NCBI GenBank assembly: GCA_964614215.1
Contig: CAZTKP010000001.1
Span: 1 to 60,127 of the forward strand
Source of the DNA: an uncultured Spirochaetales bacterium
GTDB lineage: Bacteria; UBP6; UBA1177
Length of the DNA: 60,127 nucleotides
Reading direction: 5' to 3'
The position numbers and the translations under genes were made by a program. The notes beneath the pieces are model-generated. The model saw nothing but the letters and a program-made list of their open reading frames with translations. It made no database searches and was not told the DNA's origin. Below, one piece after another: positions 25,890-54,134 of this stretch (the stretch's first letter is position 1; each line of letters starts with the position of its first letter).

Positions 25890-26214
25890 TTTTTTCCCTC
25901 CTCACAGAAACAGCTCCAATGGTGTCACTACAGCACGAAAGCAGCAGCTCCATTCTATCTCTTGAGTCAATTTTCCAGCTCTTCCATGCAATATCAAGCA
26001 GCCATCCTTCCGGAATAAGACCATCAAAAAATGGAAATAATATTTTTGATTCGTATGACTCTTTTCTAAGAGGAAGTGTTTTGCTTACTGCAACAGGATC
26101 TGAAGCCAAAAGATATTCCGGATCATAGGTGAAAACATACCCTGAATCAGTTTGTTCAACAATTCCGGCAAATCTGTCATACATGTAGACATATCCATAT
26201 TTTTTTATCATCAT
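25882..26214 (-). CDS. HipA N-terminal subdomain protein (HipS-like)
   Basis: 110 aa with motifs FAGIVEQTDSGYVFTYDPEYL, FPFFDGLIPEGW and DTIGAVSV, typical of the HipA N-terminal domain. It overlaps the kinase gene by 8 nt and the HTH gene by 4 nt. Confidence 0.8.
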   Translation of the reverse strand: MMIKKYGYVYMYDRFAGIVEQTDSGYVFTYDPEYLLASDPVAVSKTLPLRKESYESKILFPFFDGLIPEGWLLDIAWKSWKIDSRDRMELLLSCCSDTIGAVSVRREKND

Positions 26215-32602: not shown

Positions 32603-33507
<905 letters not shown>

Positions 33508-33524
<17 letters not shown>

Positions 33525-38022: not shown

Positions 38023-39988
38023 TCAGCAACGAACAGCCGATACTTTCTTCCTGCACATCATCTTGCTCTTCAACAGGATCCTTTGAGTTATCTTCGATCT
38101 CATCTTTATTGTTGTCGGGAATTTCATTTTTATCATCAGCTTCTTCAGTATCAGTTTCCTCGTAGTTATCCTGAACTTCATTGTCAGATACTTCCTGCGT
38201 ATTATCTCGGTCATCGGTCTGATCGTCACGTTCTTCATCTGAAGATTCTATATCCTCATCCATATTACCGGAATCAGCATCTATATTGCCGGAATCAGCT
38301 GCATCATCTTCTGTGTCGTCTTCAAACTCTTCATCAGGAAACTCTATTCCTTCGAAATCCCAGCATTCATCTTTTGTGCAGGGCGATGATTCATCTATAT
38401 CCTCTTTAAGCTGCAGAGATATCTCTCCGCCACCTTTTATCCATGCCGCTGCCACAGCTCTTAAAGCATTTACCCTGCCATAACCGTATTTATTACTATG
38501 CCCTTTTTCATCATAGTTCGCATCACCTGTCGAGACTCTATCTGCTGTAACCAGAAGGATCTCTTTTATCTCGCCTGCAGACAGCTCTGGATTAACTTCA
38601 AGCATCAATGCTATTACTCCCGTCACAAGAGGAGCAGCGGAAGATGTATGTGAAAATCTGAAAGAATATTTTCCCCACCAGCCATCACCTCCTGCAACAG
38701 GTGAATTAGGAGTCCATCCCGCCTGGTCACTGCAGCCGTTTGACGGAGTTTCACCTTCTTCAAGACAATCCGGTCGAAGAAAATTGTCTGTTGACCATAT
38801 TCTGTCATAATAAGTGCTTGTTCCGGACTTTTCACCACCTGCTGTCGGAGCCATAATATCTAATTTTTCTCCATAGTTAGAGAAATTATACCTTTTACCT
38901 GTACTGTCTGTTGCGCCTACGGATATTGTATCAGGATGTGTTGCAAAAGGGTTCCATGAAAAATCTTCCCCGGCATTTCCTGAAGCAAATACAACAACCG
39001 TTCCGAGACCTTCTCTGCCTTCACTTGCAAAAGCTGAAAAAAGCTCATTGAAGTACTCACTGTTTATCGCTGCATCAGGACCCCAGCTACAGTTAATTAC
39101 CTCCGCCCCCTGCTCGTAAACCCATGTAAATATTGAATCCAGATACTGCTCAGGAGTTAACTGCGGATCAAACGAAGCATCAGCATCCATTCTCGCGCCG
39201 ATTATTCCGCAGAAAGGACAGACACCGGAAGGTCCCAGAGAATTATTCCCTCTTGCAGCAGCAATACCGGTTACCATTGTTCCATGAAAATTGTCCGTAA
39301 TTCCGACTGTTTCACTGAACATATTGTCCTGTTCAACGGGTCCTGAGAAATTTTTCCAGCTTAAAAAATTATCTTTGAGATCCTCATGCTGTATATCAAA
39401 ACCATCGTCTATAACACCTATCTTTCTATCCTGTCCGATTGTGTTTTCATCGGCGACACCGAGAAGCTTCAGCAGTCTCCAGGCTTCCTGGATATGTGCG
39501 TGATCATTACCTCTTACCGACAGTTTTCCGTCTGCTGATGTAACGTTTCCCGTATTATGGAAGTTCCATTGCTCACTTTGATAAGTGTCGTTGAGATACA
39601 TCGGCTCTATACCGTAAAGTTTAATCGGAACTAAAAGCTCCGGTCGGGCTGAAAATCCAATTTTTTTAAGTTGTTCCGCTTTTTTAACAGGATCTTCATT
39701 ACAGTCTGCAACAGCCCAGTTTCTTAAAAACAGCTCTTTCTTTTCACTACATCCCAGACTTTTTAAACACTCTTTCCGACCCTTTTTAAAGCACTCGTCG
39801 GTCATTTTTATGAAAAGATTCCCTGATATTTTTACAGGTTTATCGATGTTTTTCAGCTTTATTGCTTTAAAACCGTCGACTACAATAGTTTTTTCAATCT
39901 TTACATCCCTGCCGTTAACATCTAAAAAATTCTGAGCATTGAGAAATGAGATCATTAAAAGAATTGCTATCATAAACCAGCGTTTCAT
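38015..39988 (-). CDS. secreted subtilisin-like (S8) serine protease with a roughly 130-aa acidic tail
   Basis: Signal peptide. Catalytic Asp in GVIDDGFD, His in HGTMVTGIAAA and Ser in SHTSSAAPLVTG. The tail is extremely D/E-rich and ends in GCSLLTI. Confidence 0.88.
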   Translation of the reverse strand: MKRWFMIAILLMISFLNAQNFLDVNGRDVKIEKTIVVDGFKAIKLKNIDKPVKISGNLFIKMTDECFKKGRKECLKSLGCSEKKELFLRNWAVADCNEDPVKKAEQLKKIGFSARPELLVPIKLYGIEPMYLNDTYQSEQWNFHNTGNVTSADGKLSVRGNDHAHIQEAWRLLKLLGVADENTIGQDRKIGVIDDGFDIQHEDLKDNFLSWKNFSGPVEQDNMFSETVGITDNFHGTMVTGIAAARGNNSLGPSGVCPFCGIIGARMDADASFDPQLTPEQYLDSIFTWVYEQGAEVINCSWGPDAAINSEYFNELFSAFASEGREGLGTVVVFASGNAGEDFSWNPFATHPDTISVGATDSTGKRYNFSNYGEKLDIMAPTAGGEKSGTSTYYDRIWSTDNFLRPDCLEEGETPSNGCSDQAGWTPNSPVAGGDGWWGKYSFRFSHTSSAAPLVTGVIALMLEVNPELSAGEIKEILLVTADRVSTGDANYDEKGHSNKYGYGRVNALRAVAAAWIKGGGEISLQLKEDIDESSPCTKDECWDFEGIEFPDEEFEDDTEDDAADSGNIDADSGNMDEDIESSDEERDDQTDDRDNTQEVSDNEVQDNYEETDTEEADDKNEIPDNNKDEIEDNSKDPVEEQDDVQEESIGCSLLTI

Positions 39989-40108
39989 TGGTCTACCCCC
40001 TGAAAGTTAATTATCCACTTAAATAATTTTTCTTAATTTATCCGGATAGTCGACCAAGTATGAAATTTTAATTGAGTGAAAAGTCCAGATACGTAATTTT
40101 TATTGAAT

Positions 40109-40681
40109 TTATTGAGAATTTTCCATTATCTTTCTAAAGGCAATGCCGCGATGGCTAAGGGCATTTTTCTCTTCAGGAGTAAGCTCTGCCATGGTTTTTT
40201 CATAACCTTCCGGGATAAAAACGGGGTCATAGCCGAAACCGCCTGTTCCCTTTTCATCAAAACCGATAGTTCCGTGACATTTTCCCGTTTCCACAATTGC
40301 CGAGCCGTCACTTTTTAACAGAACCGCTGTACATTGAAAGTAGGCACGCCTGTCAGAGATATCTTTCATTTCATCAAGAAGTTTTTTTCTGTTAAGAGCA
40401 TCATTCCCATCTTCTCCGCCATATCTTGATGAATATACTCCGGGGTTTCCGTTTAAAGCAGGAACAACCAGTCCTGAATCATCACTCAGAACAGCAGTTC
40501 CACTAGTCATTTTAACAGCTTCCTCAGCCTTTATCACCGCGTTCTGCAAAAATGTATCGCCTTTCTCTACCGGATTAAAATCCGCAAAGAATTCCTTTAT
40601 CGAAACGATCTCATGTCCCTGAAATATCTCTTTAGCTTCTTTTAGCTTTCCCTTATTCCCCGTTGCGAACACTATCTTCAT
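40109..40681 (-). CDS. rdgB: non-canonical purine NTP pyrophosphatase RdgB/HAM1
   Basis: MKIVFATGNKGKLKE and GFGYDPVF. The ATG at 40681 forms an ATGA overlap with the trmB stop. Confidence 0.9.
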   Translation of the reverse strand: MKIVFATGNKGKLKEAKEIFQGHEIVSIKEFFADFNPVEKGDTFLQNAVIKAEEAVKMTSGTAVLSDDSGLVVPALNGNPGVYSSRYGGEDGNDALNRKKLLDEMKDISDRRAYFQCTAVLLKSDGSAIVETGKCHGTIGFDEKGTGGFGYDPVFIPEGYEKTMAELTPEEKNALSHRGIAFRKIMENSQ

Positions 40682-41277
40682 TTCTTCTCCAGCAGAAAGT
40701 AGTTTATCGGCCAACCGTCGGCGATCTGTTTCTTTTCCCACTTGGTCATGATCTCTCTGTCAGCTTCTCCGTACGGCAACTGCTTAAAAAACTGTTTTGT
40801 AAACTTCAACTCTTTTCTAATAAATTCACCGTATTCAGGGTGATCTGTTGCGATATAGAGTTTTCCGCCTTTTTTAAGTCTGTTTGAGAACATTATGAAG
40901 TTCTCAAAGCGTAAGGTTCGGAATTTATGATGTTTTTTCTTAGGCCATGGGTCAGGAAAGTAGACATGAATAGCGTCCAGTGAATTAAACGGAACAAGCT
41001 CCTTCATCACTGAAACCGCCTCAAAACAAACGACCCGGACATTATCCTGAACAAGCTTTTTCTTCAGGTTTTTCTTTCCTCTTTCAATAAACTTTCTGCT
41101 TATCTCAAGTCCCAGAAAACCTGTATCCTTTTTCAAATTTGCATATTCCCTTAAAAACAGACCACTGCAGAAACCGATCTCAACCTCTATCTTTTCTTTA
41201 TCAGGAAAAATCTCTCTGAAATTAAAAGGCTTTGACGCGATCTCTTCGAGAGGGAGCTCAAAATCACTCCTTGGCAT
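40678..41277 (-). CDS. trmB: tRNA (guanine46-N7)-methyltransferase
   Basis: EIGFCSGLF and VYFPDPWPKKKHHKFR motifs. Confidence 0.9.
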   Translation of the reverse strand: MPRSDFELPLEEIASKPFNFREIFPDKEKIEVEIGFCSGLFLREYANLKKDTGFLGLEISRKFIERGKKNLKKKLVQDNVRVVCFEAVSVMKELVPFNSLDAIHVYFPDPWPKKKHHKFRTLRFENFIMFSNRLKKGGKLYIATDHPEYGEFIRKELKFTKQFFKQLPYGEADREIMTKWEKKQIADGWPINYFLLEKK

Positions 41278-41283
41278 ATCCTC

Positions 41284-41796
41284 TCATTCTCCTTCGTAGA
41301 TCATTATATCTGGAAGGTTTCTATACTTTTCATCAAGATCAAGTCCATAGCCGATCACAAACTCGTTCTTTATATCAAAACCCAGAAAATCCACCTTAAC
41401 GCGGCCTTTATTTATCTCTTTTTTCTCAAGAAGAGAACATACTTTTACAGATTCCGGACCGACCTCTTCCATCTTTTCAAGGAAAAATGAAAGTGTGTTT
41501 CCTGTATCAACAATATCTTCAACAACAAGCAGGTTTCTTCCTCTGAACTTCTCAAGCTCTCCCATCAGCATCTCGACCTTTCCCGTTGACTGTGTTCCAC
41601 TGTAAGAAGCAAGCCTTATAAAATCAATGTCCATCTTATCAGACTGGATGGCTCTAATGAGATCTGCAGCAAAAATCGTACTTCCCTTTAAAATTATCAG
41701 GCAGGTAAAATGTCTGCCGTCATAATATTTTGTAATTTCTTTGCCAAGTTCCTGTACCCTGTCATGAATTGTATGTCTGCAGATCAGCTTTTTCAT
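41284..41796 (-). CDS. hpt: hypoxanthine phosphoribosyltransferase
   Basis: LLVVEDIVDTGNTL PRPP motif, 170 aa. Confidence 0.9.
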   Translation of the reverse strand: MKKLICRHTIHDRVQELGKEITKYYDGRHFTCLIILKGSTIFAADLIRAIQSDKMDIDFIRLASYSGTQSTGKVEMLMGELEKFRGRNLLVVEDIVDTGNTLSFFLEKMEEVGPESVKVCSLLEKKEINKGRVKVDFLGFDIKNEFVIGYGLDLDEKYRNLPDIMIYEGE

Positions 41797-43886
41797 CTTT
41801 TAATTTTCTCCAGTCTATTTATTTCTCTCATCCATTCCTTCTTTTTATAGCCAAATTCCAGTTTTGACATTTTTTCTCTTAAAAATGACGCAGCATCAAT
41901 ATTTCTTCCCAAAGCCTCAAGAACAGCAGCTTTTAACTCTATAGATTTTACATCTTCCCGTAACGCTACAGATTTTTCCGCAAAAGGAAGCGCTTTTTCA
42001 TTCTCGTCCTGCATATAGAGATAAATACCCATGTTCATTACAACTTTCTTATATACAGCTCCATCTTCCACACCGTTTTCATTCAGCTTTTTTAGGGCTA
42101 GTTCATTTATTTTAACAGCCTCTTTATACTTTCCTTTTGCGTATAATTCCGCTGCTTTATCATTAAGTTTCGCCGAATCAAGTTCCAGAAGACCTTCCTT
42201 GTCATCAATGATACCCGGGGTTTCTTCTGCTTTCTTGTCCTTAACTTCTGTTTTTGTTGCATTCTTGCTTTCAATCTCTATTTGAAATTCTTTTTTTGCA
42301 TCAACAGCAATAAAATTGTAGTAGTAATAAAATACACCAAGTCCTGTGGCAACAACAAAAAGAAATATTGCTATTTTGAGAAATCCTCTATCCTCTTTTT
42401 TTGTTTCAGAATGCTCTTCCTGCAGACCTTTTTCAAGTTTCACATCTTCCAGATGCTCATTCATTAATGTTTTCAGTTCTTCGTCATCAGAAACTGTGTT
42501 TATTATCTCTGTCTTAAGATCATCCTCTTCTGTGTCTAAAGGAATTTCCTCTTTTTCTTTTTCCTCTTCTTCTTCTTCTTTTTCCTCAATATCTACATCG
42601 ATCTCTTCAAAATTATCCTCCTGTTCAGGCTCTTTATCCTCAAGCTCTTCTTCCAGATTAAGTTCATCTGAATTTAAAAGAGATGGTGCTGAAACTTCAC
42701 TCTTCTTTTCACCAAGGTTTTTCAGTGATTCTAAAGACAGTCCATCAGCAGGGTCCAGAGTATCTTTCTGAGCCAGCGTAGGAGGAGGAACCAGTGTTTC
42801 CATCGGAGAATCATCCTGTTTCTGCTCCGGCTCTCCACCGAAATTTTCTAACAGGGACTCAAGCTCTGCTCCTTCTTCAGGTTCATTTCCAGTAAGCCAT
42901 GACGGTTCTTTAGGAAGTTTATACCTGGACTCCGTTCTTTCAACAGAAACAACTCCGAATTCAAGCATTTCTTTGAGACTGTTTACTGTCTGCTTCCTGT
43001 CAAGCTCAGTTCTTTCAATAATGTCGCTGAAACGGCTCCCTTCCGGACCGATACTTCTTACAATAATAGATATATTGTCCGGAAATCTGTTGATCTCCTT
43101 GAGGAATTTTCCAGGATTAAAATAGAGCATTGAATCCAGAGGGGGCATGTCACTAAGCTCGGAAGTATAGTCATCAAGCCAGTTTGCGGCTTTTACCAGA
43201 AGTCTGTCATGAGGCACTCTGACGTTTCTTTGAACATCAATATCCCTGTAGCTGATCGTAAAGTTTCCATCAAGCCATGAAAGGATCCGGAACAGTTCGT
43301 CAACACCATTATTGTTACTACTATCCTCAGTTTCGATTCTTGTTACAGCTCCGTTGGTAAAAAATATTTTTGCATTCTTTTCAGTTGACGAAGAAAGTTC
43401 CACCACGCCACTTGATCTGTTTTCAGCAATAATATTAAGCACATCTATAACTGAAATGCTTGACACGTCACCTTTAAATTCTTTTTTGCTTTTTGACGAT
43501 GAAAGCAGCTCGTTAAACTTTTTCTGGTCAAAAAAATCGTTAATTCTGTGCACAAGAACTTTGATGAAAATGGGTTTCATAAAAAAAGCTTCCGCCCCCA
43601 TTTCATGGGCAAGGATCTTGTCCTCCACATTTCTTGAGCTTGAAAGAAAAATGAACGGAGTATCCATTGTCTCAGGGTTCATCTTGACTCTTTTGAGGAA
43701 ATCAACTCCCGTAAGTTCAGGCAGCTCCATTTCCGAAATGATCAGATCCGGAGAAAAGTCTTTAACAACTTTTATTGCGTTTACCGTTCTTGAAAGCGAT
43801 TTAACATCATATCCCTGTTGGCGAAGCTTAAGCTCCAGAACTGCTGTTACCTGATCATCAGCATCAACTATCAGTATTTTTCTCAA
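41793..43886 (-). CDS. response-regulator receiver / PATAN (DUF4388) / acidic linker / TM / TPR protein
   Basis: REC domain: ILIVDADD...LIISEMELP...MKP. PATAN-like: GDVSSISVIDVLNIIAENRSSGVVEL...IFFTNGAV. One TM helix (IAIFLFVVATGLGVFYYY). C-terminal TPRs. TTG start preceded by GGAGGA. Confidence 0.8.
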   Translation of the reverse strand: MRKILIVDADDQVTAVLELKLRQQGYDVKSLSRTVNAIKVVKDFSPDLIISEMELPELTGVDFLKRVKMNPETMDTPFIFLSSSRNVEDKILAHEMGAEAFFMKPIFIKVLVHRINDFFDQKKFNELLSSSKSKKEFKGDVSSISVIDVLNIIAENRSSGVVELSSSTEKNAKIFFTNGAVTRIETEDSSNNNGVDELFRILSWLDGNFTISYRDIDVQRNVRVPHDRLLVKAANWLDDYTSELSDMPPLDSMLYFNPGKFLKEINRFPDNISIIVRSIGPEGSRFSDIIERTELDRKQTVNSLKEMLEFGVVSVERTESRYKLPKEPSWLTGNEPEEGAELESLLENFGGEPEQKQDDSPMETLVPPPTLAQKDTLDPADGLSLESLKNLGEKKSEVSAPSLLNSDELNLEEELEDKEPEQEDNFEEIDVDIEEKEEEEEEKEKEEIPLDTEEDDLKTEIINTVSDDEELKTLMNEHLEDVKLEKGLQEEHSETKKEDRGFLKIAIFLFVVATGLGVFYYYYNFIAVDAKKEFQIEIESKNATKTEVKDKKAEETPGIIDDKEGLLELDSAKLNDKAAELYAKGKYKEAVKINELALKKLNENGVEDGAVYKKVVMNMGIYLYMQDENEKALPFAEKSVALREDVKSIELKAAVLEALGRNIDAASFLREKMSKLEFGYKKKEWMREINRLEKIKR

Positions 43887-44406
43887 TATCTTCCTCCGAC
43901 TGTTCCCTTTTGCAATATTTAATCAAAGTGATCATATTGCCTTTTTTGTTAAAAAGAACCTTATCAAAAACTGAAGAAATTATCCTTAGGCCGAAACCAT
44001 TGAAACGTTCGTCATCACACCCTTCACATTTTTCAGCTCTTTTAAGAGCCTCCTCCCAGTTAAAACCTTTACCCTGGTCCTCAATTTCGATCACCTGCTT
44101 TTCGTCATCAACCGTTGAGGTTATTCTGACCCTTCTTTTTGCACAGGGCAGTCTATTTGTGAGCTTTTTTAAAAAAAGATCATACTCCCCTTTTTCCAGC
44201 AATTCTTTTTTTTCTTCACCGGTTATCTCAAGATTTCCGTGCTCAATAGCATTAAAAACCGCCTCATAAACCGCAATTTCAAGAAGATACAGGTCAGGGA
44301 AAAGTTTTGAGGACGAGCTGATAATTTCCGATACAGCCAGAGATATCTCGCTCATTCTGCTCTCTATTTCAAAAACTTTAACATCAGTCCCGGATCTTTT
44401 GCTCAA
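43864..44406 (-). CDS. RsbW/SpoIIAB-type anti-sigma serine kinase (HATPase_c_2)
   Basis: N-box AVFNAIEHGN, G1 EDQGKGF and G2 GFGLRII, 180 aa. Confidence 0.8.
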   Translation of the reverse strand: MSKRSGTDVKVFEIESRMSEISLAVSEIISSSSKLFPDLYLLEIAVYEAVFNAIEHGNLEITGEEKKELLEKGEYDLFLKKLTNRLPCAKRRVRITSTVDDEKQVIEIEDQGKGFNWEEALKRAEKCEGCDDERFNGFGLRIISSVFDKVLFNKKGNMITLIKYCKREQSEEDIEKNTDS

Positions 44407-44414
44407 ACCAACTC

Positions 44415-45494
44415 CTAAGAATACAGAGCATTTAAATACTCTGTCATTCTTTTAATATCGAATTCTTTATCAACAACACCCTTTTCTATAGCAGATCTGG
44501 GCATTCCTGAAACTGCACACTCATATCTGTCCTGCGCTATTGTTACAGCACCGTTCTTCTTCATCTCTTCAAGACCTCCCGCTCCGTCACAACCCATGCC
44601 TGTCATGATCACTCCTACGGCATTTGACCTTACAACAGAGGCTGCAGACTTAAAAAGAACGTCTACCGATGGCTGATGTCTGTTGACCTTAGGTCCTTTC
44701 TTGACAACAGTTTTATAGCCTTCCGGAGTTTTCTGGATCATGAGGTGGTGTCCACCTTTTGCTATGATAACATCTCCCTTTTTAAGCAGATGCCCGTTCT
44801 CAGCTTCAAAAACACTGAACGGATAGAGTTTGTTTAACCTGTCGGCAAAACTTTTTGAGAAAAAAGGCGGAATATGCTGAACGATCATTATCGGAGGCAT
44901 TATCCTGTAATCAAGACCGGACAGCAGCTTTTCGATCACTATTGTTCCACCGGTCGAGGCTCCGATAAAAATTACCGAGGTCATCGGATTCATTCTAATA
45001 TTTTCATCAAGAGGAACCAGTTTGATGGTCTGGCGGCTCAATGTCGTAAGAGACTCGTCTTTCTGCCTGTGTTTATGAAGATTAAGCCATGACCTGGGAA
45101 CCAGAGATGCCGCAACAAGCTTATCGTGAATAACTTCCGAAACTTCACTTAGAGAAGATTCGTTGTCCGGCTTTAAAATATAATCTATGGCCCCGAGCTC
45201 CAGAGCTTTCAGTGTATAGGCCGCATTTTCCGTTGTAAGAGAACTTATCATTACAACAGGGAGAGGAACACCTCTCATTATCTTGTCCAGAAAGGTCAGT
45301 CCGTCCATTTTAGGCATTTCGATATCCAGAGTTATTATGTCAGGCATCTGCCTTTTCATGATAGAATGAGCTTCAAACGGATCTGCAGCCTTTCCGATAA
45401 CCTCAAAATCTTCAAATCCATCTATGATCTGTGTAAGTATTTCTCTTGCTGTTCTGGAATCATCAACAATGAGTACTTTTTTCTTAACGATCAT
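44415..45494 (-). CDS. cheB: protein-glutamate methylesterase/deamidase CheB
   Basis: REC domain (VLIVDDS, ITLDIEMPKMDG) plus a methylesterase domain (IGASTGG, GMGCDGAGGL). The start could also be 45518. Confidence 0.92.
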   Translation of the reverse strand: MIVKKKVLIVDDSRTAREILTQIIDGFEDFEVIGKAADPFEAHSIMKRQMPDIITLDIEMPKMDGLTFLDKIMRGVPLPVVMISSLTTENAAYTLKALELGAIDYILKPDNESSLSEVSEVIHDKLVAASLVPRSWLNLHKHRQKDESLTTLSRQTIKLVPLDENIRMNPMTSVIFIGASTGGTIVIEKLLSGLDYRIMPPIMIVQHIPPFFSKSFADRLNKLYPFSVFEAENGHLLKKGDVIIAKGGHHLMIQKTPEGYKTVVKKGPKVNRHQPSVDVLFKSAASVVRSNAVGVIMTGMGCDGAGGLEEMKKNGAVTIAQDRYECAVSGMPRSAIEKGVVDKEFDIKRMTEYLNALYS

Positions 45495-46110
45495 CTGCCG
45501 ACCCTTTGCTACTGTCATTAAATAGTGTTATTCCGCCACTTATATCTTCCTGTTTCTTATGAAGTACAGAGGCCTTATATTTTCTTTCAACATCCATATC
45601 GCTCTCGTTATTTCCGTGTAGTTTTTTAACAAGGACCCTTCCATTTTCAGCAGGTAGAAAGATAACTTTTCTACCGATATTTCCGCCGATATCGCTTGCA
45701 AGAACCTCAATTTCCTCGTACTGGAGAAAAGTGCGGACAAAATTAAGGTTTGCTTCAGGAATATTTCCGTCAGACTTTCTAAAGTTCAACACATGGGCCC
45801 CTCCGAATATCTTCGCCTGAAGCTTGTTTCTTCTGGCTCCCATTTTCATCATTTCATTTATAAGTTTTTCCATCGCAAACATTCCGTAGCGACTGCTCTT
45901 TGATGCAAAGACCTCGTCATTCCTGAAATCACCAGGCAGCATAAAGTGGTTCATTCCGCCGATATTTCTTTCAAGGTCCATAAGGCATACGGCAACACAG
46001 GACCCCAGCACGGTCGCTATTCCTTCAGTTGAATGGTCCACGACATAGTACTCCCCGGGCTGTATCACAACGATATCTCTATTAAGCTTTCTGTTGAAAG
46101 ACTTATACAT
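45484..46110 (-). CDS. cheD: chemoreceptor glutamine deamidase CheD
   Basis: VLGSCVAVCLMD and GGMNHFMLPG motifs, with a roughly 40-aa C-terminal extension. Confidence 0.9.
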   Translation of the reverse strand: MYKSFNRKLNRDIVVIQPGEYYVVDHSTEGIATVLGSCVAVCLMDLERNIGGMNHFMLPGDFRNDEVFASKSSRYGMFAMEKLINEMMKMGARRNKLQAKIFGGAHVLNFRKSDGNIPEANLNFVRTFLQYEEIEVLASDIGGNIGRKVIFLPAENGRVLVKKLHGNNESDMDVERKYKASVLHKKQEDISGGITLFNDSSKGSADDR

Positions 46111-46127
46111 TCATTCTCCGCTTTAAG

Positions 46128-46982
46128 TTACTCCTGCATTTTTTTCTGATAAACTGTATTCTTAAGATATGTCAGACCATCCACCATATCAAAAAGTGTT
46201 TCGGAATGACCCATCATAATATAACCACCCGGGTTCAGGTATCTGTAAAGCTTATTCACAACTCTTCTCTTTGTTTCCGGATTGAAATATATGATAACAT
46301 TCCGGCAAAAAATAACATCAAAAGTTGTAGATATGGGATATTCAGAAGCAACAAAGTTCAGCTGTTTGAAAGTAACCATTTTTCTAATAAAATCTTTAAC
46401 CTTATAAAGGCCACTGCTTTCGTCTTTTCCTCTGAGAAAATACTTTCTCATATATTCTTCAGGCATCACAGAAACAATACTGCTGTCATAGATGCCTTTT
46501 GACGCAACGGTCAGAACACTCGTGTCAATATCAGTTGCAAGTATCTTTACCGGAATATTGTACTTCTCGACAAAATGCTTGGCCATGACCATGGCAATAG
46601 TATACGGCTCTTCCCCTGTAGAGCATGCGGCAGACCAGATCTTCACTATTCTTTTATTCTTAGCAAGCAAAGCCGGAATTATCTTTGATACAAGAAAATC
46701 AAAATGATGAGCTTCTCTGAAAAAATCAGTTTTATTCGTGGTTATAGAGTTTATAAAGTTCTGCACTTCCGTAAATCCTGAAGGAGACACAAGAAGACTA
46801 TGGTAGTCTGAAAAACTCTTCAATTTCAAAGCCTTAAGTCTTCTTGAAAACCTTGAGATAACTAGTTCTCTCTTTGTTTCTGAAAGACTTATCCCGCTAA
46901 TTTTATAAACCAGGTCTCTAAGTTTTGTAAACTCTTCATCGCTCAGAGCGATCTTTTTGATCTCAAATTTGTTCTCACTCAT
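46128..46982 (-). CDS. cheR: chemotaxis protein methyltransferase CheR
   Basis: TDFFRE and IWSAACSTGEEPYT. ATG at 46982 (the track start is TTG). Confidence 0.92.
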   Translation of the reverse strand: MSENKFEIKKIALSDEEFTKLRDLVYKISGISLSETKRELVISRFSRRLKALKLKSFSDYHSLLVSPSGFTEVQNFINSITTNKTDFFREAHHFDFLVSKIIPALLAKNKRIVKIWSAACSTGEEPYTIAMVMAKHFVEKYNIPVKILATDIDTSVLTVASKGIYDSSIVSVMPEEYMRKYFLRGKDESSGLYKVKDFIRKMVTFKQLNFVASEYPISTTFDVIFCRNVIIYFNPETKRRVVNKLYRYLNPGGYIMMGHSETLFDMVDGLTYLKNTVYQKKMQE

Positions 46983-48306
46983 TGTCAAGTATCTTCTCAA
47001 GGTCCAGAACTATTAGAAACCGTGCCGTTTTCGGGTCTTTGGCAATAAATTTAACATAATCTATGTTTATCTGCCTGCTTGTTACAGGAGTTATCTGCGT
47101 ATTTTCCGATTCAAGAAAGACAACATCCTCAATAGCATCGACAACACATCCTGTTATCTTATTGTTGACTTTAACTATCAGAAATACCGAAAATTCATCA
47201 TATTTTACCTTTTTCTTGCCCATTAAAAGCCTTAGGTCCACTACCGGAACAACGTTACCTCTAAGATTCATCACTCCCAGCATGTGGTTAGGCTGATTGG
47301 GAACCTTCGAACAGGGAAGCATTTCCTTCATATCAAAAACATCTTTTATCGAAATAGCGTAATATTCTTTCCCTATACAGAAAGATACAAATTCCTTTTC
47401 CTCTTCTTTTTCTATTTCCTGAACCTGCTCCTCAAAATTATCTTTTGTCTTATTCTGATAAGGCATCGTTTCAACTTCCGGATCATACTCTATTTCTTTC
47501 TCAGGCTCTTCTTTCTTTTCAGATCCCCGAAGAGGGCTCTGCGATCCAAATATCCTGCTTACCGTATCCTTGTCTATGAGGACAATCTTTTCTTTGGGAA
47601 TATCTTTCAGTCTATTTCTTAGCTTTCTGTCCGAAATATCACACAGGTAAAGGACCGAAACCGGAATTGAATCTTCATAAACATTCTCAATGTCAATAAC
47701 AGAATCCAGAATGTCTCCATACTCAAGCAGCTCGGAAATAAAATCCGTAAGCCCCCATTTATTCTCATCAAGATCTGTCATGGGATCAATATTCAGCAGA
47801 TAGAGGCTCTTTTTCTCAAGCTTCTTTTCAATTTCATGTAAATTAATGGAAAAAGAGAACTCTTTTCCATCAATATCAATTTTTACAGGACTCTCTTTAA
47901 CTTTTCCATTCAGGCTGTCAAAAAGAATGTTAACCTGTTTTTCAATTTTATTCAGGGGCCTTTTTTTGACCTTACCTTTATCCGCAAGGGAATCCTTTAT
48001 AAGCTTAAACAGGCCTTCTACAAGCCCTGCCGAAACTTTATCTGCGGGGATCTTTTTGTCTTTCAGGAAAAACAGTATCTTTTCGAGCCAGTTCGAGACT
48101 TTTTCTATATCCTCAAGCCCAAGAAAAGAACTTCCGCCACTTATAGAGTGAACAGCCCGGAACAGATATTTCTCTTTTTTAAGAGACGAAACATCACCCT
48201 TTTCAATATTTTCTATCAGCTCCGGAATTCTATGCTCAAAACTGTTTACCGAATCCAGCGATTCATTTAAGAATTCTGGTACTATGTTTAAAAAATCATT
48301 CATCAT
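46975..48306 (-). CDS. HPt-CheW hybrid protein (P1 and P5 domains only, no kinase core)
   Basis: The N-terminal LFRAVHSISGGSSFLGL matches the CheA P1 phospho-His box (compare FRSVHTLKGSSGMV in the adjacent CheA). The C-terminal CheW domain has FCIGKEYYAISIKDV...GVMNLRGNVVPVVDLR. No H-box dimerisation or HATPase motifs lie between them. Confidence 0.8.
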   Translation of the reverse strand: MMNDFLNIVPEFLNESLDSVNSFEHRIPELIENIEKGDVSSLKKEKYLFRAVHSISGGSSFLGLEDIEKVSNWLEKILFFLKDKKIPADKVSAGLVEGLFKLIKDSLADKGKVKKRPLNKIEKQVNILFDSLNGKVKESPVKIDIDGKEFSFSINLHEIEKKLEKKSLYLLNIDPMTDLDENKWGLTDFISELLEYGDILDSVIDIENVYEDSIPVSVLYLCDISDRKLRNRLKDIPKEKIVLIDKDTVSRIFGSQSPLRGSEKKEEPEKEIEYDPEVETMPYQNKTKDNFEEQVQEIEKEEEKEFVSFCIGKEYYAISIKDVFDMKEMLPCSKVPNQPNHMLGVMNLRGNVVPVVDLRLLMGKKKVKYDEFSVFLIVKVNNKITGCVVDAIEDVVFLESENTQITPVTSRQINIDYVKFIAKDPKTARFLIVLDLEKILDNE

Positions 48307-48310
48307 TCAC

Positions 48311-48817
48311 CTAAAGGTTATCCATCAGGTCAAGTTCCTGATCAGAAAGTATCTTTGCCATATCAAGTATGATCAGAAAACTGTCACTATCCTTTTTTAC
48401 CATTCCCCGTATGAACTGGGTTTTAACTCCTGCAAAAAATCTTGGCGGCGGCTGGATCTCTGAGCTTTTGATCTTAAGTATTTCATTGACCTTATCAACA
48501 ACGACACCCATGATCCTTCCACTTACATCAACGACCATTATAACACTGTACCGGGTGATCTTTGTGCTTTCTGCACCGAACTTTTCTCTTAGGTCTATTA
48601 CTGGAACAACTAGTCCTTTAAGATTAAGAACACCTTTTACAAAATGAGGCATTGAAGGAACTTTTGTGAGCTTTTTTATGTTGGTTATCTCAAAAACCTT
48701 CAGAATATCCGTTGCATACTCTTCTTCCCCAACAAGAAAGGATATGAACTGAAGCTTTTTCTCTTCAGCCGGTTTATTTTCCTTTTTAATTCTATCTATC
48801 AGATTTGATCGGTTCAT
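48311..48817 (-). CDS. cheW: coupling protein CheW
   Basis: FLVGEEEYATDILKV...GVLNLKGLVVPVIDLR, 168 aa. Confidence 0.92.
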   Translation of the reverse strand: MNRSNLIDRIKKENKPAEEKKLQFISFLVGEEEYATDILKVFEITNIKKLTKVPSMPHFVKGVLNLKGLVVPVIDLREKFGAESTKITRYSVIMVVDVSGRIMGVVVDKVNEILKIKSSEIQPPPRFFAGVKTQFIRGMVKKDSDSFLIILDMAKILSDQELDLMDNL

Positions 48818-50916
48818 ATTTTCTCCAACTGACTAAAACAGATCTTTTCTAATCCGTAAATATCCAGAATAAGAGATATTCTACCATCCCCCAGCACTGT
48901 TGCACCGCTAATTCCGGGCACCTGTTTGTAGTTCTTTTCAAGACTCTTTATTACAACCTGCTGCTGTCCGACAACATCATCCACCATCAGAGCTATTTTT
49001 TTATTATGTCCATCAAGGATAAGGATCAGGCTCTGTTTCGGGTCAGTTATTTCTGTTTCAAAGTTAAAGGCCTCATACAGTCTGATAAGAGGAATGTATT
49101 CATCTCTGTACTCGATAAGCTCTCCTCTATCTTCAATTGTCCTGACCAGATTTTCTTCCGACCTGACAGCTTCGACAATTGAAAAAAGAGGAACAGTGAT
49201 GATCTCCTTTCCGACAGAAACCTGCATTCCTTCAATAATAGCCAGTGTCAAAGGAAGGATTATTCTGAAAAGAGTACCTCTTCCCTGCTCCGAATAAAGC
49301 TCAATCGATCCCCGAAGGTTCTCTATGTTTTTTCTTACAACATCAAGCCCGACCCCCCTGCCGCTTATTTCAGTAACAGCTTTTGCCGTCGTAAACCCCG
49401 GAAAAAAGATGAAGTTTAAGATCTCTTTTTCTGAAAGGTCTCCTCCTTTATACATTCCTTTTTCCTTCGCCTTTTTAAGTATGGCCCGCTTATCTATGCC
49501 TTTTCCGTCATCTTCGACCTCAATAACGATCTTTCCTTCCTGCTGGTAAGCTCTTAACCAGATAGAACCCTCTATAGGCTTCCCGGAAGCTATCCTTTCT
49601 TCAGGAGATCCTATTCCATGGTCTACAGCATTTCTGATAAGATGCTTCAACGGTGCATCGATCTGTTCTATAAGTGTTTTATCAAGTTCTGTGTCAGATC
49701 CGGTCATAAAAAGGTTTATCCTTTTGTCAAGCTCCCTGGCAGTATCTCTTACTGTTCGCTGAAACCGTCTGAAAGTCCCTTCTATAGGAACCATTCTTGC
49801 CTTCATTACCTGTTCCTGAACATAGCGGGATATTCTGTCAAGATGTTCCGAAGCATCGTTGAGATCTCTATCTTTCAGATACTTCTCTGAAACCAGCTGA
49901 TTTATCCTGGCTATGCCGATCACCATCTCCCCGACCAGATTAACAAGACGATCAAGCTTGCCTGTATCCACCCTAATTGTATGGGAAACCTGAAAATCCC
50001 GGCTTTTCTGCTGACTCTGGAGAACCTTGCTTACAACATTCCCGTCCAGAGAATTCCTTTCAACTAGTAACTCGCCGAATTTCTTCTGAGAATCCTCGAC
50101 AGCTTTCAGGTCAAAATCCGTAAGATATCCTTCCTCCTGAAGAATTTCCCCCAGTTTTTTATCCGCGTATCTTATATCGACACCTTCAAAATACTTTTTG
50201 CTGACATCTTCGACAATGATCGTGTTGTTTTCCTGAACAAAAATAAAAATGTTATCGACCGAGGATCTTGGTTCAAACGTTTTTACAACCAGTTCCCAGC
50301 TTAGATAAAACTTTTCAAAACTTAGCTTTTCAATATCGGGGATGTTTTCCGGATCACATTTAACTCTGATAATTTCTCCAATAGAATCAAGCTCTTTTAG
50401 AAGCATTAAAGGGTCTGTTCCCGTTGAGAATATGTCTGGCTTAAATTTTAAAATTATCTGAAAGTACTTTTCAGAAAAAGAATTCTCATCCCTTTTTTCT
50501 TCCTCTTTTTTGTCCGGAGTATCTGCATTGTAACCTTTATATTTCCTAATGCTTTCTGTCAGTCTTCTTGTTTCCGGACCATGAATCGCCTCTGCTTCTT
50601 CCGGATCAGTTGAAACAAGGGCTTTCAACAGGTCTGTAACCTCAAGAAGCAGCGTAATAAGCCCTGCTGTGACCTTAACTTCTTCAGATCTGACCCTTGA
50701 AAGAACATTTTCCAGATCATGAGCAAAAGTTGTCAGGACTGAAAAATCCACCATTCCCGAGCTGCCTTTCAATGTATGAACTGAACGGAAGATGTTGTTT
50801 ATGAGCTGTTTATCGCCCATATTATTCTCAAGATCGAGCAGATCTCTTTCAAGAGAAACAACTATTTCCTGTGCTTCTTCTGTAAAAATATCAAAAAGAG
50901 ATCTTTTTCTGGACAT
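48814..50916 (-). CDS. cheA: chemotaxis histidine kinase CheA (P1-P5 complete)
   Basis: P1 FRSVHTLKGSS, P3 IRVDTGKLDRLVNLVGEMV, P4 HLIRNAVDHGI, DDGKGID and GRGVGLDVV, plus a P5 CheW-like end. ATG at 50916 (the track start is TTG). Confidence 0.93.
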   Translation of the reverse strand: MSRKRSLFDIFTEEAQEIVVSLERDLLDLENNMGDKQLINNIFRSVHTLKGSSGMVDFSVLTTFAHDLENVLSRVRSEEVKVTAGLITLLLEVTDLLKALVSTDPEEAEAIHGPETRRLTESIRKYKGYNADTPDKKEEEKRDENSFSEKYFQIILKFKPDIFSTGTDPLMLLKELDSIGEIIRVKCDPENIPDIEKLSFEKFYLSWELVVKTFEPRSSVDNIFIFVQENNTIIVEDVSKKYFEGVDIRYADKKLGEILQEEGYLTDFDLKAVEDSQKKFGELLVERNSLDGNVVSKVLQSQQKSRDFQVSHTIRVDTGKLDRLVNLVGEMVIGIARINQLVSEKYLKDRDLNDASEHLDRISRYVQEQVMKARMVPIEGTFRRFQRTVRDTARELDKRINLFMTGSDTELDKTLIEQIDAPLKHLIRNAVDHGIGSPEERIASGKPIEGSIWLRAYQQEGKIVIEVEDDGKGIDKRAILKKAKEKGMYKGGDLSEKEILNFIFFPGFTTAKAVTEISGRGVGLDVVRKNIENLRGSIELYSEQGRGTLFRIILPLTLAIIEGMQVSVGKEIITVPLFSIVEAVRSEENLVRTIEDRGELIEYRDEYIPLIRLYEAFNFETEITDPKQSLILILDGHNKKIALMVDDVVGQQQVVIKSLEKNYKQVPGISGATVLGDGRISLILDIYGLEKICFSQLEKI

Positions 50917-50920
50917 TTTA

Positions 50921-51298
50921 TTACCGTACAAATTTCTTAACTACCCACAATAACTGCTCCGGTTTAAAAGGCTTTACCAGCCATCCGCTAGCTCCCGCAG
51001 CTTTTCCCTCCATCTTTTTGGCATTTTCAGATTCTGTTGTCAGTATCAGGATCGGCACAAAACGGAAGTTTCCTTTTTTCACCTCCTTTATGAAAGAAAT
51101 CCCATCCATAACCGGCATATTGATATCAGAAATTATCATATTTATTTTCTGCTCAGATCTCGCGCATTCTTCCAGCTTGTCAAGCCCCTCTTTCCCATCT
51201 TTGGCCTGAAGAACTTCATATCCCGCATCTGTCAGTACAAAATTTACAGAAGCTCTTAAAGTTGCCGAGTCATCAACGATTAGAATTGTTTTGTTCAT
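50921..51298 (-). CDS. cheY: single-domain response regulator CheY
   Basis: ILIVDDSATLR, MIISDINMPVMDG, LILTTE and LVKPF, 125 aa. Confidence 0.92.
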   Translation of the reverse strand: MNKTILIVDDSATLRASVNFVLTDAGYEVLQAKDGKEGLDKLEECARSEQKINMIISDINMPVMDGISFIKEVKKGNFRFVPILILTTESENAKKMEGKAAGASGWLVKPFKPEQLLWVVKKFVR

Positions 51299-51582
51299 TT
51301 TTCAACCTCTTTAAAAAGACTGGTCAAGCCTGTCAGTTTCAAGTCTTTTTTCATTTCTTTCGGAATATTTTTCCATGTGATCTCGATTTCTGAAGACTTC
51401 ATCCACGAAATAAAGATCTGAAAAGTCGACATGTCCCAACTGTCAGCCCTTTTTAAGTTAACTGTTATCTTTTTGCTGGAAAAAGGCAGATCTTTAAAAA
51501 AATTATAGAGACTTTTTCCATCATTGATAGATATATCTCCTGAAATATGGATGGTACTGCCGTCAATTTTATAGTTGGCCAT
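51295..51582 (-). CDS. degenerate STAS-like protein
   Basis: 95 aa. Its length and pattern (IHISGDISINDG...VNLKRADSWDMSTFQIFISW...LKLTGL) resemble an anti-sigma antagonist fold, but the DxxxSSG phospho-site is absent. Confidence 0.5.
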   Translation of the reverse strand: MANYKIDGSTIHISGDISINDGKSLYNFFKDLPFSSKKITVNLKRADSWDMSTFQIFISWMKSSEIEITWKNIPKEMKKDLKLTGLTSLFKEVEK

Positions 51583-51593
51583 AACGTCTCTTT

Positions 51594-51902
51594 TTACCGC
51601 TTTATAGTTATCAGCTTATCAAGCCTTATGGCTCTAAAAAGAGAGAAAAGCTCTTCGCTTATACCTTTGATCTCTGTTTCAATTCCTGAATGTCTTGCCT
51701 TTTTGTAGAAGATCAGCAGTTTTCCTATTCCGGAACTGTTAATAAAATCAAGCTTTGATAGGTCAAGCTGTATCTTTTCTCCGCTTTTATTGAGCACCTC
51801 ATCAAGATTTTCCTGAAATTTCTGAATCCCTTCGTTGTCAATGCGGCCTTCTATTGACATTTGAATTGTTCCGTTTTTTTCTTCAGTCTGAATGTTCAGC
51901 AT
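51594..51902 (-). CDS. STAS-domain anti-sigma-factor antagonist (SpoIIAA/RsbV-like)
   Basis: LDLSKLDFINSSGIGKLLIF carries the canonical phosphorylatable Ser motif. ATG at 51902 lies 5 nt after GGAGG (alternative start at 51914). Confidence 0.82.
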   Translation of the reverse strand: MLNIQTEEKNGTIQMSIEGRIDNEGIQKFQENLDEVLNKSGEKIQLDLSKLDFINSSGIGKLLIFYKKARHSGIETEIKGISEELFSLFRAIRLDKLITIKR

Positions 51903-51925
51903 TTTAGCCTCCATGTATCGATCAG

Positions 51926-52654
51926 TTAAAACAACTCTAAACTGCCCGTATTTGAATATTCTTTATTTTCAGGGAACATTTCGTTGAGTATCTCAACATG
52001 TGCCCTCACCCTGAACTTTTCATATAGTCTCTCGGCAAGACCTGGATTTTCCGAAACCCCTGAACTGCTGATAATGCTCTGAACACAGAACAGTCCCATT
52101 TTTTTATTCACATCAACAGTATGCCTGGCGGACCTGTTAATTTTTTCCGAACTTGAATGTACAGAGGTTTTTGAATCTCTGACTGCTTCCTTGTAATCTT
52201 TCCCGTCCGTTATCTCCGAAACATTGTCCAGTATCCGGTCGGCTCTTTCAAGCTGCTCTTTGAGCTGAAGCAGTGTTGTACCGATAAGCGAAAAAGTACT
52301 CGTTGAAACAGCTCCGAGAAGTTTTGCAAACCTTTCCGCCTGATCAAGGTCAAGTTTCTGGTCAGTCGTCTTAAACCTTTTCAGCTCTTCAAAGATGACA
52401 TCAAAACTCTCAAAACTTTGTGAGATAATATCTCCGAACTGAAAAAGAGTGGCCATATTCAGAACCGACTCTTTGAGTTTCTCTGCCTCGACAGCATGAT
52501 AAACGTCCTTTTTGCCCAGCTCTTTTCTATCGTTCAGAATGTTTCCTGCCTTTTTTGCGACAAGATTACACAATTCAACGGTGGAAGTCATGTCTTTAAA
52601 AACACTATCCAGATTATTAGAAACACTGATTACAAATTCTTCAAGATCATGCAT
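51926..52654 (-). CDS. all-helical cytoplasmic protein, first gene of the Che operon (candidate CheZ-like phosphatase)
   Basis: 242 aa with no TM helix and no MCP signalling hairpin motif. LFQFGDIISQ contains a D-x3-Q arrangement like the CheZ active-site FQDLTGQ. The C-terminus is ...NTGSLELF. Confidence 0.6.
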   Translation of the reverse strand: MHDLEEFVISVSNNLDSVFKDMTSTVELCNLVAKKAGNILNDRKELGKKDVYHAVEAEKLKESVLNMATLFQFGDIISQSFESFDVIFEELKRFKTTDQKLDLDQAERFAKLLGAVSTSTFSLIGTTLLQLKEQLERADRILDNVSEITDGKDYKEAVRDSKTSVHSSSEKINRSARHTVDVNKKMGLFCVQSIISSSGVSENPGLAERLYEKFRVRAHVEILNEMFPENKEYSNTGSLELF

Positions 52655-52783
52655 GTTGCAACAAACCTCTCATTAAAAAGAACCCCTTACTATAACCTTA
52701 ATTTATTTTTGGGTCAATTTTAGCAACCCGGAACCTAATTAAAATTTGTATTTGAGGAACATTTTCAGTATTATTCTTGTGAA

Positions 52784-53332
52784 ATGTTTGTGTGGGAAAA
52801 AATGAAAGTTGCTATTGATTCTTTTTTGTCGGTTTTGCTGATTTTTTTGCTTGTTTTTTCAGTTTCAGGCTGTTCAAAAAAAGCACCTGAAAAAAGTATG
52901 ATCCTTTCCCAAATGGACGTTGACCTTCTTGTTCAACATAAGAAAAACATCGACAGAATAACAAAAAAGTATGATAAGATCCTCCGGAAAACTAAACAAC
53001 AGGACCGTCCTGCAGTGGTGAATAAGGGAAAGTCTGAAATTGACAACTTCCTAAGGTCCAAAAATCTCGACCCGACCTTTTTTATGCGAAAATCCAAAAA
53101 AATATTAAATGGTTACATAGCTTTTTATAAAACGAGCGATGCTGCTGTCGAAAGAAGAAAAAAAATCCTTAAGGAACAGAACCTGTCTGAAAAAGAGATT
53201 CGGGAAAACATAAAAGCTTTTAAAAAAGAAAAGGAAAGCGTCTTTAAGGAGCTTACCGATGGTCTTACAGACTACGAGATCGAACTTATCAGGACAAATC
53301 TTAAGAAAATAGCTTCTGTCGTAAAATTATAG
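52784..53332 (+). CDS. lysine-rich hypothetical lipoprotein
   Basis: Signal plus lipobox (FSVSGC). The start may be the ATG at 52802. No catalytic motifs. Confidence 0.55.
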   Translation: MFVWEKMKVAIDSFLSVLLIFLLVFSVSGCSKKAPEKSMILSQMDVDLLVQHKKNIDRITKKYDKILRKTKQQDRPAVVNKGKSEIDNFLRSKNLDPTFFMRKSKKILNGYIAFYKTSDAAVERRKKILKEQNLSEKEIRENIKAFKKEKESVFKELTDGLTDYEIELIRTNLKKIASVVKL

Positions 53333-53333
53333 A

Positions 53334-54134
53334 TCAGTCTTCAAGATTGTTGTTTGTATCAAGCCACTTAGTATGGAAGAATTCTGCCATCTTTTCAGCA
53401 ATGAACCGGATAAATTCCATATCATCTTCATTGAATCGAGATGCGTCTTTTTTATTAATAAGCTCCAGAACTCCGAAAGTGATCCCTGTCTCCATTGATC
53501 TTACCGGAGCACAGATTATCGAAGAGGTCTCGTAGCCTATCTTCTCGCTTATCTCCTTAAAGAACCTCGGGTCCTTGTGAACATCACCTACAGCTATAAA
53601 GCATGCGTGTTTCGCAGAAAATCCAACGAGTCCCTGTCCTACTTTAACTTTGATCCCGCAGACATCGTCACTTTTGGGACCTCGACAGGAAACAAACTCC
53701 AGGTCGGTTGAACTCAGATCACTTCTTGCATAACTACCGCTTTCACTTGGAATATACTTCAGCGCAAGATCCAGAAAAAAGTTATGGGCTTCTTTTTCGC
53801 TCAGATCCCATGCATCCATAGCATCTGTAAAAAGATTTGCCAGCATTTCATCTTTTCTGGTGATCTTCGGAGCCTCTTCTTTTTTCTCCTCAGCCTGAAT
53901 AGGACTTTTTGTAAGGTCAAGTTCTCTTACAACAAATTTTTTGCTTGTTACTGTATCTGTAACATTTATAGATCCGTCCTCTTTCACATCACAGATAATG
54001 TTTGCCATTGAATCTGCCATTCCCAGACCTGACAGGGCTGACTCGAGAGCACAGAACCAGTTAGGACCCTCTTCTCTTACAACCACTTCTTTTCCACCTT
54101 GCCCCATTGGCACAAGAACTTCAAATTTCGTCAT
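53334..54134 (-). CDS. GAF-domain protein
   Basis: The C-terminal 150 aa carry GQGLVGFSAKHACFIAVGDVHKDPRFF...SIICAPV...GVLELINK, a typical GAF fold signature. Confidence 0.75.
   Translation of the reverse strand: MTKFEVLVPMGQGGKEVVVREEGPNWFCALESALSGLGMADSMANIICDVKEDGSINVTDTVTSKKFVVRELDLTKSPIQAEEKKEEAPKITRKDEMLANLFTDAMDAWDLSEKEAHNFFLDLALKYIPSESGSYARSDLSSTDLEFVSCRGPKSDDVCGIKVKVGQGLVGFSAKHACFIAVGDVHKDPRFFKEISEKIGYETSSIICAPVRSMETGITFGVLELINKKDASRFNEDDMEFIRFIAEKMAEFFHTKWLDTNNNLED

Follow-up and report, generated by a model that had tools for sequence, protein, structure and literature searches.

Ancestral F7 chemosensory systems occur widely, and the literature still calls their function unclear. 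The "stage 1" form of the ancestral F7 cluster has the gene order STAS-cheY-cheA-cheW-cheW-(receptor)-cheR-cheD-cheB-(receptor)-STAS/PP2C-kinase, as in V. cholerae cluster III (VCA1088-1096), and none of the species studied drives its flagellar motor through an ancestral F7 system (PMC7184735). In Shewanella oneidensis the F7 system Che1 is linked to CrsR and CrsA, which control RpoS (PMC9855816), and the HsbR/HsbA partner switch of P. aeruginosa likewise regulates RpoS. The S. meliloti protein CheS, which consists of a STAS domain only, changes how phosphate is divided between CheYs by binding CheA (PMC12654446), and a figure on F3/F7/F8/F9/F14 clusters mentions STAS-only genes in its gene-order legend (PMC9239204). 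Here we analyze a twelve-gene chemosensory array on a metagenome-derived contig of an uncultured Spirochaetales bacterium (GTDB lineage UBP6; UBA1177; GenBank assembly GCA_964614215.1, contig CAZTKP010000001.1, positions 1 to 60,127). By "the window" we mean this whole stretch of 60,127 nucleotides (nt), in which the array runs on the minus strand from position 52654 to 41793 (Table 1).

We propose that the locus is probably a stage 1 cluster of the ancestral F7 type in a reduced form from outside the Proteobacteria, with a built-in partner switch made of STAS1, STAS2 and a serine kinase. Its Che core is complete, comprising CheA, CheW, an HPt-CheW hybrid, CheY, CheR, CheD and CheB. As in stage 1, a STAS gene lies directly upstream of cheY and is followed by cheY-cheA-cheW-cheW, the second CheW being fused to HPt in the window; the cheR-cheD-cheB block is present, partner-switch genes occupy the 3' end of the cluster, and McpA-type motifs are found, namely an LQFxDIIxQ helix and an x[VIL]ELF tail, as is a CheD tail of the form x[VI][TE][LI]F. 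An earlier sequence-only reading of this DNA had set the architecture apart from its closest precedent, which it named as Shewanella Che3; the published stage 1 gene order matches that of the window, and it is Che1 that the literature connects with CrsR/CrsA. The likeness to the Shewanella system, whose output is other than motility, lies in the genetic linkage of che genes with a STAS antagonist and with a kinase domain of the RsbW type, whereas CrsR is a single REC-PP2C-kinase protein and the kinase of the window stands alone, with no receiver (REC) and no phosphatase nearby.

The differences from stage 1 are mostly absences, and for the window they refer to a Pfam scan that took in the cluster, the three genes behind it and 40 further larger open reading frames (ORFs), most of those of at least 110 amino acids (aa) together with a few shorter ones and none beyond position 58624. 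Unlike stage 1, the window has, among the scanned ORFs, no Aer2-like 36H pentapeptide receptor between cheW and cheR, and no true McpA-like receptor gene; it has two STAS genes upstream and none downstream, and a 180-aa kinase without PP2C in place of REC-PP2C-kinase. The host belongs to an uncultured non-proteobacterial lineage and its CheA is only 35% identical. Relative to stage 1, the Aer2-like receptor gene is absent from the cluster, a 242-aa protein without signalling hairpin would have replaced the McpA-like receptor, keeping only the McpA signatures, and REC-PP2C-kinase would have been cut down to the bare kinase. The overall design is already known from Vibrio, Pseudomonas and Shewanella and is no new kind of pathway. 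What the locus adds is this design outside the Proteobacteria, in an uncultured lineage and in a pared-down form (bare kinase, no PP2C, no receptor), together with a PATAN protein whose receiver appears dead and McpA-type motifs that are free-standing, with a related tail on CheD. The minimal conserved module appears to consist of STAS, kinase, CheY-A-W-W, R-D-B and a carrier of the McpA-type motif.

To follow the array beyond the window, homologues of the kinase, the first gene and the REC-PATAN protein were traced to their contigs, and about 100 loci were annotated by a BLAST script. The whole array recurs in L007, L015, L008/9, L095 and L097; L016 carries it without the REC-PATAN gene, and L014, which is partial, keeps the cheD-cheB-kinase-REC-PATAN end. 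The kinase is 83% identical in L007 and 40-41% in L095 and L097, the range across loci being 40-83%. The 83%-identical cluster is carried by a contig of 2.83 Mb (ENA ERZ21878204, ctg9565l). That the STAS and kinase genes belong with the che genes, as the sequence-only reading had supposed, is borne out by these metagenomic genomes, since STAS-STAS and kinase are syntenic with the che genes in L007, L015, L008/9, L016, L095 and L097. As the array recurs across related loci, the linkage is conserved and not accidental.

Both halves of a partner switch had been recognized beforehand, and their active sites hold up on closer inspection. STAS1 keeps its phosphorylatable Ser within FINSSG; the motif is retained in all orthologues and aligns with the DSSG of SpoIIAA. 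The phospho-site of STAS2 is degenerate, and since its orthologue in L008 (46% identical) has unmarked precomputed STAS/STAS_2 matches with E of at most 1e-5, we regard STAS2 as a real STAS. In the kinase the N box (E48, N52, E55-H56-G57-N58), G1 (D110, G112, G114) and G2 (G137, G139) are intact and invariant. Compared with the kinase domain within the Vibrio REC-PP2C-kinase, the window kinase shows 25% identity, and its relatives have the form REC-kinase, REC-kinase-PP2C, REC-PP2C-kinase or REC-kinase-STAS. Since the L008 kinase (298 aa) matches a Nitrospira REC-kinase along its entire length (E 7e-29), the bare 180-aa kinase appears to be a derived form that lost its receiver within the lineage.

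More distant relatives join the same parts in other ways. An Acidobacteria metagenome-assembled genome (L066) has STAS-STAS-Y-A-W-HPtW-R-D-B followed by a REC-kinase-PP2C fusion, and L027 has a REC-kinase-STAS fusion followed by Y-A-W-HPtW-R-D and, further on, B-kinase. The Nitrospira loci read A-W-MCP-R-D-B-STAS-STAS-REC/PP2C-Hpt-REC/kinase, MCP standing for methyl-accepting chemotaxis protein, and a Vibrio replicon (L101), which shows the stage 1 order as published, reads Y-A-W-W-Aer2-like-R-D-B-McpA-like-STAS followed by REC-PP2C-kinase. The fusion that heads the che cluster of L027 (537-1799), a 420-aa protein of REC, RsbW-type kinase and STAS, is of the Rosetta-stone kind.

Domain content, motif conservation, synteny and the fusions of the relatives are direct observations, and the affiliation with the F7 class is our inference. 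The MCPs encoded within the Nitrospira clusters align without gaps to E. coli Tsr (36H) and end in the pentapeptide EFEEF, and a 1050-aa MCP of L097 also aligns to Tsr without gaps, whereas an F8-like control (L100) showed the symmetric 7-residue gaps of a 34H receptor versus Tsr. Since 36H receptors have for the most part been placed in classes F1, F3, F7 and Tfp in the literature, the receptors of the relatives fit an F7-like affiliation without proving it. A class assignment by similarity was tried and abandoned, as tblastn searches of plasmids and chromids with CheA returned 33-37% identity throughout, with F8-like and F7-type tied.

The 1050-aa MCP lies five genes downstream of the cluster and in the same direction in both L095 (13304-16456) and L097 (11571-14777), where the co-directional array runs from rdgB through a GH3 gene to the MCP; it has a Reg_prop/Y_Y_Y beta-propeller sensor, a signalling domain of 36H length and no pentapeptide, and the window carries a subtilase at the place of this gene. 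The description of the window array as receptor-less stood in part: no scanned ORF matched MCPsignal (PF00015, the signalling hairpin), and the first gene has McpA signatures while L095 and L097 have their MCP close by. A hidden MCP among the window ORFs without a Pfam family was considered and rejected, none having any MCPsignal match. The missing MCP gene is in itself no anomaly; che operons without one are not unusual.

The first gene encodes a member of a tiny family, with 11 representatives in 1.84 billion proteins and no family name. Q72, D75, I76, Q79, F81, S83, E240 and F242 are among its invariant positions, and the family pattern is L-x-Q-[FY]-x-D-I-x-x-Q-S-F in helix 2 with a C-terminus of G-x-[LMI]-E-[LFI]-F. 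The McpA-like receptors of Vibrio L101 (ALQFTDIIVQQ ... EGEVELF) and L011 (ALQFEDMLTQ ... AGSVELF) carry both elements. Among the 6239 ORFs of all loci collected, the helix motif and the tail occurred together only in the 242-aa family and in McpA-like MCPs, and residue shuffles gave 0-1 matches to the helix motif; a tblastn search of the plasmid collection for more McpA-like sequences returned Vibrio only. The C-termini of McpA-like receptors include DIELF, EVELF, DLELF, TVELF and EIELF (PMC7184735, Supplementary Table 12), and the role of this motif is described there as "important yet unclear". We read the 242-aa protein as a putative McpA-derived module without signalling hairpin, not as a receptor.

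A different origin was weighed, in which the 242-aa protein is a highly divergent CheZ-type phosphatase of CheY~P, with D75 and Q79 acting like D143 and Q147 of CheZ and the C-terminal peptide tethering CheY. The DxxxQ motif is invariant and lies mid-helix in the family, the tail is acidic and hydrophobic with a final Phe as in CheZ, and hhalign with E. coli CheZ (sequence checked against 1KMI) pairs the stretch FGDIISQSFES with FQDLTGQVIKR, placing D75 on D143 and Q79 on Q147; that alignment, however, is not significant (E 0.62, probability 0.08) and spans the DxxxQ stretch alone. Pfam CheZ matches no member of the family, and the family profile finds no CheZ in the PDB. The AlphaFold2 model (predicted local distance difference test score 74) has four long helices forming a four-helix bundle, for which the 50 best Foldseek matches listed are generic or designed four-helix bundles only, CheZ not being among them. 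As the same motif and tail in McpA-like receptors make the better-supported relationship, we consider a CheZ-type phosphatase improbable.

Returning to the McpA-derived module, it is conceivable, though we would sooner expect otherwise, that the LQFxDIIxQ helix and an x[VIL][ET][LI]F tail form a portable docking module shared by McpA-like receptors, the CheDs of these clusters and the 242-aa family, which would link F7-type arrays to the STAS/kinase switch. If so, the 242-aa protein would be its free-standing, receptor-independent form and the role of the McpA C-terminus would become directly testable. With the McpA signature separated from the receptor body, this lineage offers a small soluble protein with which to find the binding partner of the motif.

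In Che clusters linked to a partner switch, CheD carries a McpA-like tail at or close to its very end, and we found no description of this in the literature consulted on these systems. The tail is DDDVELF in Vibrio L101 (18766-19410), AGSVELF in L011 (9621-10352) and E[ED]VTLF in all Nitrospira loci (e.g. L012 5779-6453), and in the lineage of the window (window 45484-46110) SGG[IV]T[LI]F is followed by 3-12 residues. The F8-like CheDs (L099, L100) have no such tail. The first MCP of the F8-like clusters on Aeromonas and Pseudomonas plasmids (L099 7008-8222; L100 6979-8217) has a variant of the motif pair, LQFQDRVSQ with a D[VI]TFF end, so that the signature is not confined to F7-type clusters.

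In the working scheme that we infer for the locus, down to each phosphotransfer and binding step, receptors encoded elsewhere, of 36H type in the relatives, would gate CheA. CheY and CheB would receive phosphate from CheA~P, as would probably the HPt domain of the hybrid, which retains its His and has a P1 region that aligns with that of the operon's own CheA (E 2e-4). The kinase would phosphorylate STAS1, and the STAS1/kinase pair would switch partners and control some target. As the kinase has lost its receiver and there is no PP2C nearby, coupling to CheA would require either protein contact, for instance STAS binding CheA in the manner of Sinorhizobium CheS, or CheY~P.

Several points weigh against the proposal of a reduced F7-type cluster with a partner-switch output. 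The class assignment is drawn from gene order, receptor length and motifs, the CheA of the window being about equally distant from F7-type (35%) and F8-like (36-37%) proteobacterial references in tblastn. Two short motifs are what ties the 242-aa protein to McpA, and hhalign of the family profile against McpA-like sequences is marginal (E 0.009-0.036), with the motif region alone aligned. There is no PP2C within 10 kb of the cluster in L001, L007, L008, L095 and L097, which means that the full switching cycle is not encoded locally in the lineage. Finally, CheY, at 72-91% identity between orthologues, is conserved more strongly than any other protein of the cluster, which would also fit an ordinary motility output.

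Such an output, with CheY~P acting on the motor of flagella or pili, the STAS proteins tuning CheA-CheY phosphoflux as CheS does, and the kinase modulating them so that the partner switch is a regulator and not the output, is in our view unlikely, yet it is the alternative that deserves most attention. The precedent of CheS and the STAS-only genes in the figure legend mentioned above speak for it; as in Sinorhizobium and Agrobacterium, cheY-cheA of the window is directly preceded by a small STAS gene. Unlike CheS, which according to a review (PMC12654446) acts by binding CheA, the window STAS genes are conserved together with a dedicated kinase. A further hint comes from L008, the most divergent orthologous locus, where genes for a Roadblock/LC7 (MglB-like) protein and for a small GTPase of the Arf/Ras type (MglA-like) closely precede the cluster (298-1365), a pair that hints at polarity or motility control there. 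In contrast, the scanned ORFs of the window include no gene for a motor, a flagellum or a pilus, CrsR-like proteins of the relatives unite REC, kinase, PP2C and STAS, their characterized example controlling RpoS and not motility (PMC9855816), and the ancestral F7 systems studied leave the flagellar motor alone (PMC7184735).

The second CheW-type protein of the cluster appears to be CheA P1 and P5 without the kinase core, that is, a CheA-derived scaffold. A P2-like middle domain was considered for it and dropped, as outside P1 there was no significant similarity to the operon's own CheA. The HPt-CheW form is kept in L007, L015, L016, L027 and L066, and a CheW-only protein stands at its position in L008 (plain) and in L095 and L097 (about 300 aa). 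CheA3 of Rhodobacter sphaeroides is a P1-P5 protein without kinase core that is trans-phosphorylated by CheA4; like CheA3, the hybrid joins HPt (P1) to a CheW-like domain (P5) without P3-P4 beside a complete CheA, but its linker shows no detectable similarity.

The gene that closes the array encodes the REC-PATAN-transmembrane (TM)-TPR protein, which the sequence-only reading had named as the terminal component and put forward for a test of phosphotransfer from CheA. In a model built on this, CheA hands phosphate to CheY as well as to the REC-PATAN-TPR protein, with which a chain from Che through the partner switch to PATAN ends as its output. The kinase and REC-PATAN genes do adjoin in six members of the lineage, with overlaps of 23 nt in the window and 4 nt in L095 and L097, and published work has cyanobacterial PATAN-REC regulators as outputs of Che-like systems. 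In an alignment of the receiver with CheY from E. coli and from the operon itself, however, Glu was found at the Asp57 position and Ala, Ser or Pro at the Asp13 position in all homologues aligned (14/14), with S51-E52-M53 invariant; the equivalents of Thr87 (Ser) and Lys109 are kept. Because Glu replaces the phospho-acceptor Asp and Asp13 is lost, phosphotransfer from CheA to this protein in the usual way is predicted to be very unlikely.

The gene neighbourhood is likewise at odds with a terminal role. hpt-trmB lies behind the REC-PATAN gene in every locus, joined by rdgB in L007, L008/9, L095 and L097. REC-PATAN-hpt-trmB occurs without any che gene in L094 (10001-12262) and L096 (10001-12361), and conversely L016 has the che and kinase block and no REC-PATAN gene. 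The model with PATAN as output is for these reasons quite doubtful, and the protein is, as judged from its sequence, a conserved neighbour of the Che and partner-switch genes with a non-phosphorylatable receiver and not a demonstrated output; given the translational overlap with the kinase gene, it may be linked to them by contact. It calls for caution in annotation, as it looks like a Che output and yet has a dead receiver and a gene neighbourhood of its own. As with cyanobacterial regulators of the PatA/PixG type, PATAN (DUF4388) is joined to a domain of receiver fold, but the order is reversed (REC, then PATAN), the phospho-Asp is missing, the protein is membrane-anchored with an extracytoplasmic TPR, and in two loci its gene is tied to hpt-trmB and not to a Che-like operon. 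Since the shorter homologues, which have no TPR, stop at the TM helix, the TPR of the window protein would be an extracytoplasmic addition. The trio of pseudo-receiver-PATAN, phosphoribosyltransferase (PRTase) and trmB genes (window 40678-43886) is kept whether or not a che block lies upstream, and it ties a signalling-type protein to two housekeeping genes.

The twelve genes form one operon, real and conserved. As first described from the sequence, they are co-directional and carry the domains listed for them, every one named being confirmed by Pfam, and the first gene belongs to no family. Between the longest ORFs, from 52654 downwards, the gaps are 11, 11, 4, 17 and 8 nt and the overlaps 4, 11, 4, 26, 35 and 23 nt, in keeping with the tight joins noted before; the gene-caller starts on the same contig differ slightly, and the largest gap is then 23 nt. 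The reported 4-nt overlap of the last array gene with the PRTase gene, behind which trmB and rdgB follow, was likewise confirmed. The putative promoter upstream of the first gene is the best sigma-70-like match in 39800-53400; it is no more than a consensus match, and the full scan showed no enrichment (35 found versus 27.4 expected).

Table 1. Coordinates in the window of the array genes, the adjoining housekeeping genes and the putative promoter.
Feature	Position	Strand	Evidence or remark
Sigma-70-like promoter match, TTGACC-17-TATAGT	52689..52717	-	10/12 consensus positions; 129-nt gap upstream of first gene
242-aa four-helix protein, helix motif LFQFGDIISQSF and tail GSLELF	51926..52654	-	No Pfam family; no MCP signalling hairpin
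STAS1, canonical anti-sigma-antagonist type, FINSSGIG	51594..51914	-	Pfam STAS 59.5 bits
STAS2, divergent, D-[M/T/S]-S-[T/S/A] at phospho-site (Met in window)	51295..51582	-	STAS_2 22.9 bits, below curated cut-off
CheY, single-domain receiver, canonical Asp/Thr/Lys	50921..51298	-	Pfam Response_reg 89 bits; alignment
CheA (P1 Hpt, P3, P4, P5)	48814..50931	-	Pfam Hpt, H-kinase_dim, HATPase_c and CheW
CheW	48311..48817	-	Pfam CheW 124.7 bits
HPt-linker-CheW hybrid, His retained (FRAVHSISGGSS)	46975..48306	-	Pfam Hpt 29 bits and CheW 94.7 bits
CheR methyltransferase	46128..47000	-	Pfam CheR 218 bits and CheR_N
CheD deamidase, SGG[IV]T[LI]F near C-terminus	45484..46110	-	Pfam 101.5 bits; C-terminal comparison
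CheB methylesterase, canonical receiver	44415..45518	-	Pfam CheB_methylest 192.9 bits and REC 85 bits
Stand-alone RsbW/SpoIIAB-type serine kinase, 180 aa, no N-terminal receiver	43864..44406	-	Pfam HATPase_c_2 56.5 bits
Pseudo-receiver (Glu52), PATAN/DUF4388, acidic linker, one TM helix, C-terminal TPR	41793..43886	-	REC 64 bits, DUF4388/PATAN 42.8 bits, weak TPR
PRTase (hpt-like), trmB and rdgB, housekeeping	40109..41796	-	Pfam Pribosyltran, Methyltransf_4, Ham1; overlaps or 6-nt gap to array

The remainder of the window agrees with what had been said of it, as an MCP, a PP2C, a sigma factor or a flagellar gene was found in none of the 40 scanned ORFs. These are mostly housekeeping genes, together with the subtilase, a GAF protein and several ORFs without a family. 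The GAF-domain protein (266 aa, window 53334-54134) is encoded on the same strand upstream of the cluster, a position that is kept in L007 (91%) and L015 (78%), and a divergently oriented ORF lies between its gene and the operon. Further away, a HipA-like kinase gene (312 aa) with an overlapping 110-aa ORF before it (window 24951-26214) lies beside parAB, and the two are probably a toxin-antitoxin pair. Two predicted proteins (window 3068-3940 and 32631-33524) have EGF-like matches, all below the Pfam curated cut-offs, and one of them also has a collagen triple-helix repeat match above the cut-off; EGF-like and collagen domains are unusual for a bacterial genome.

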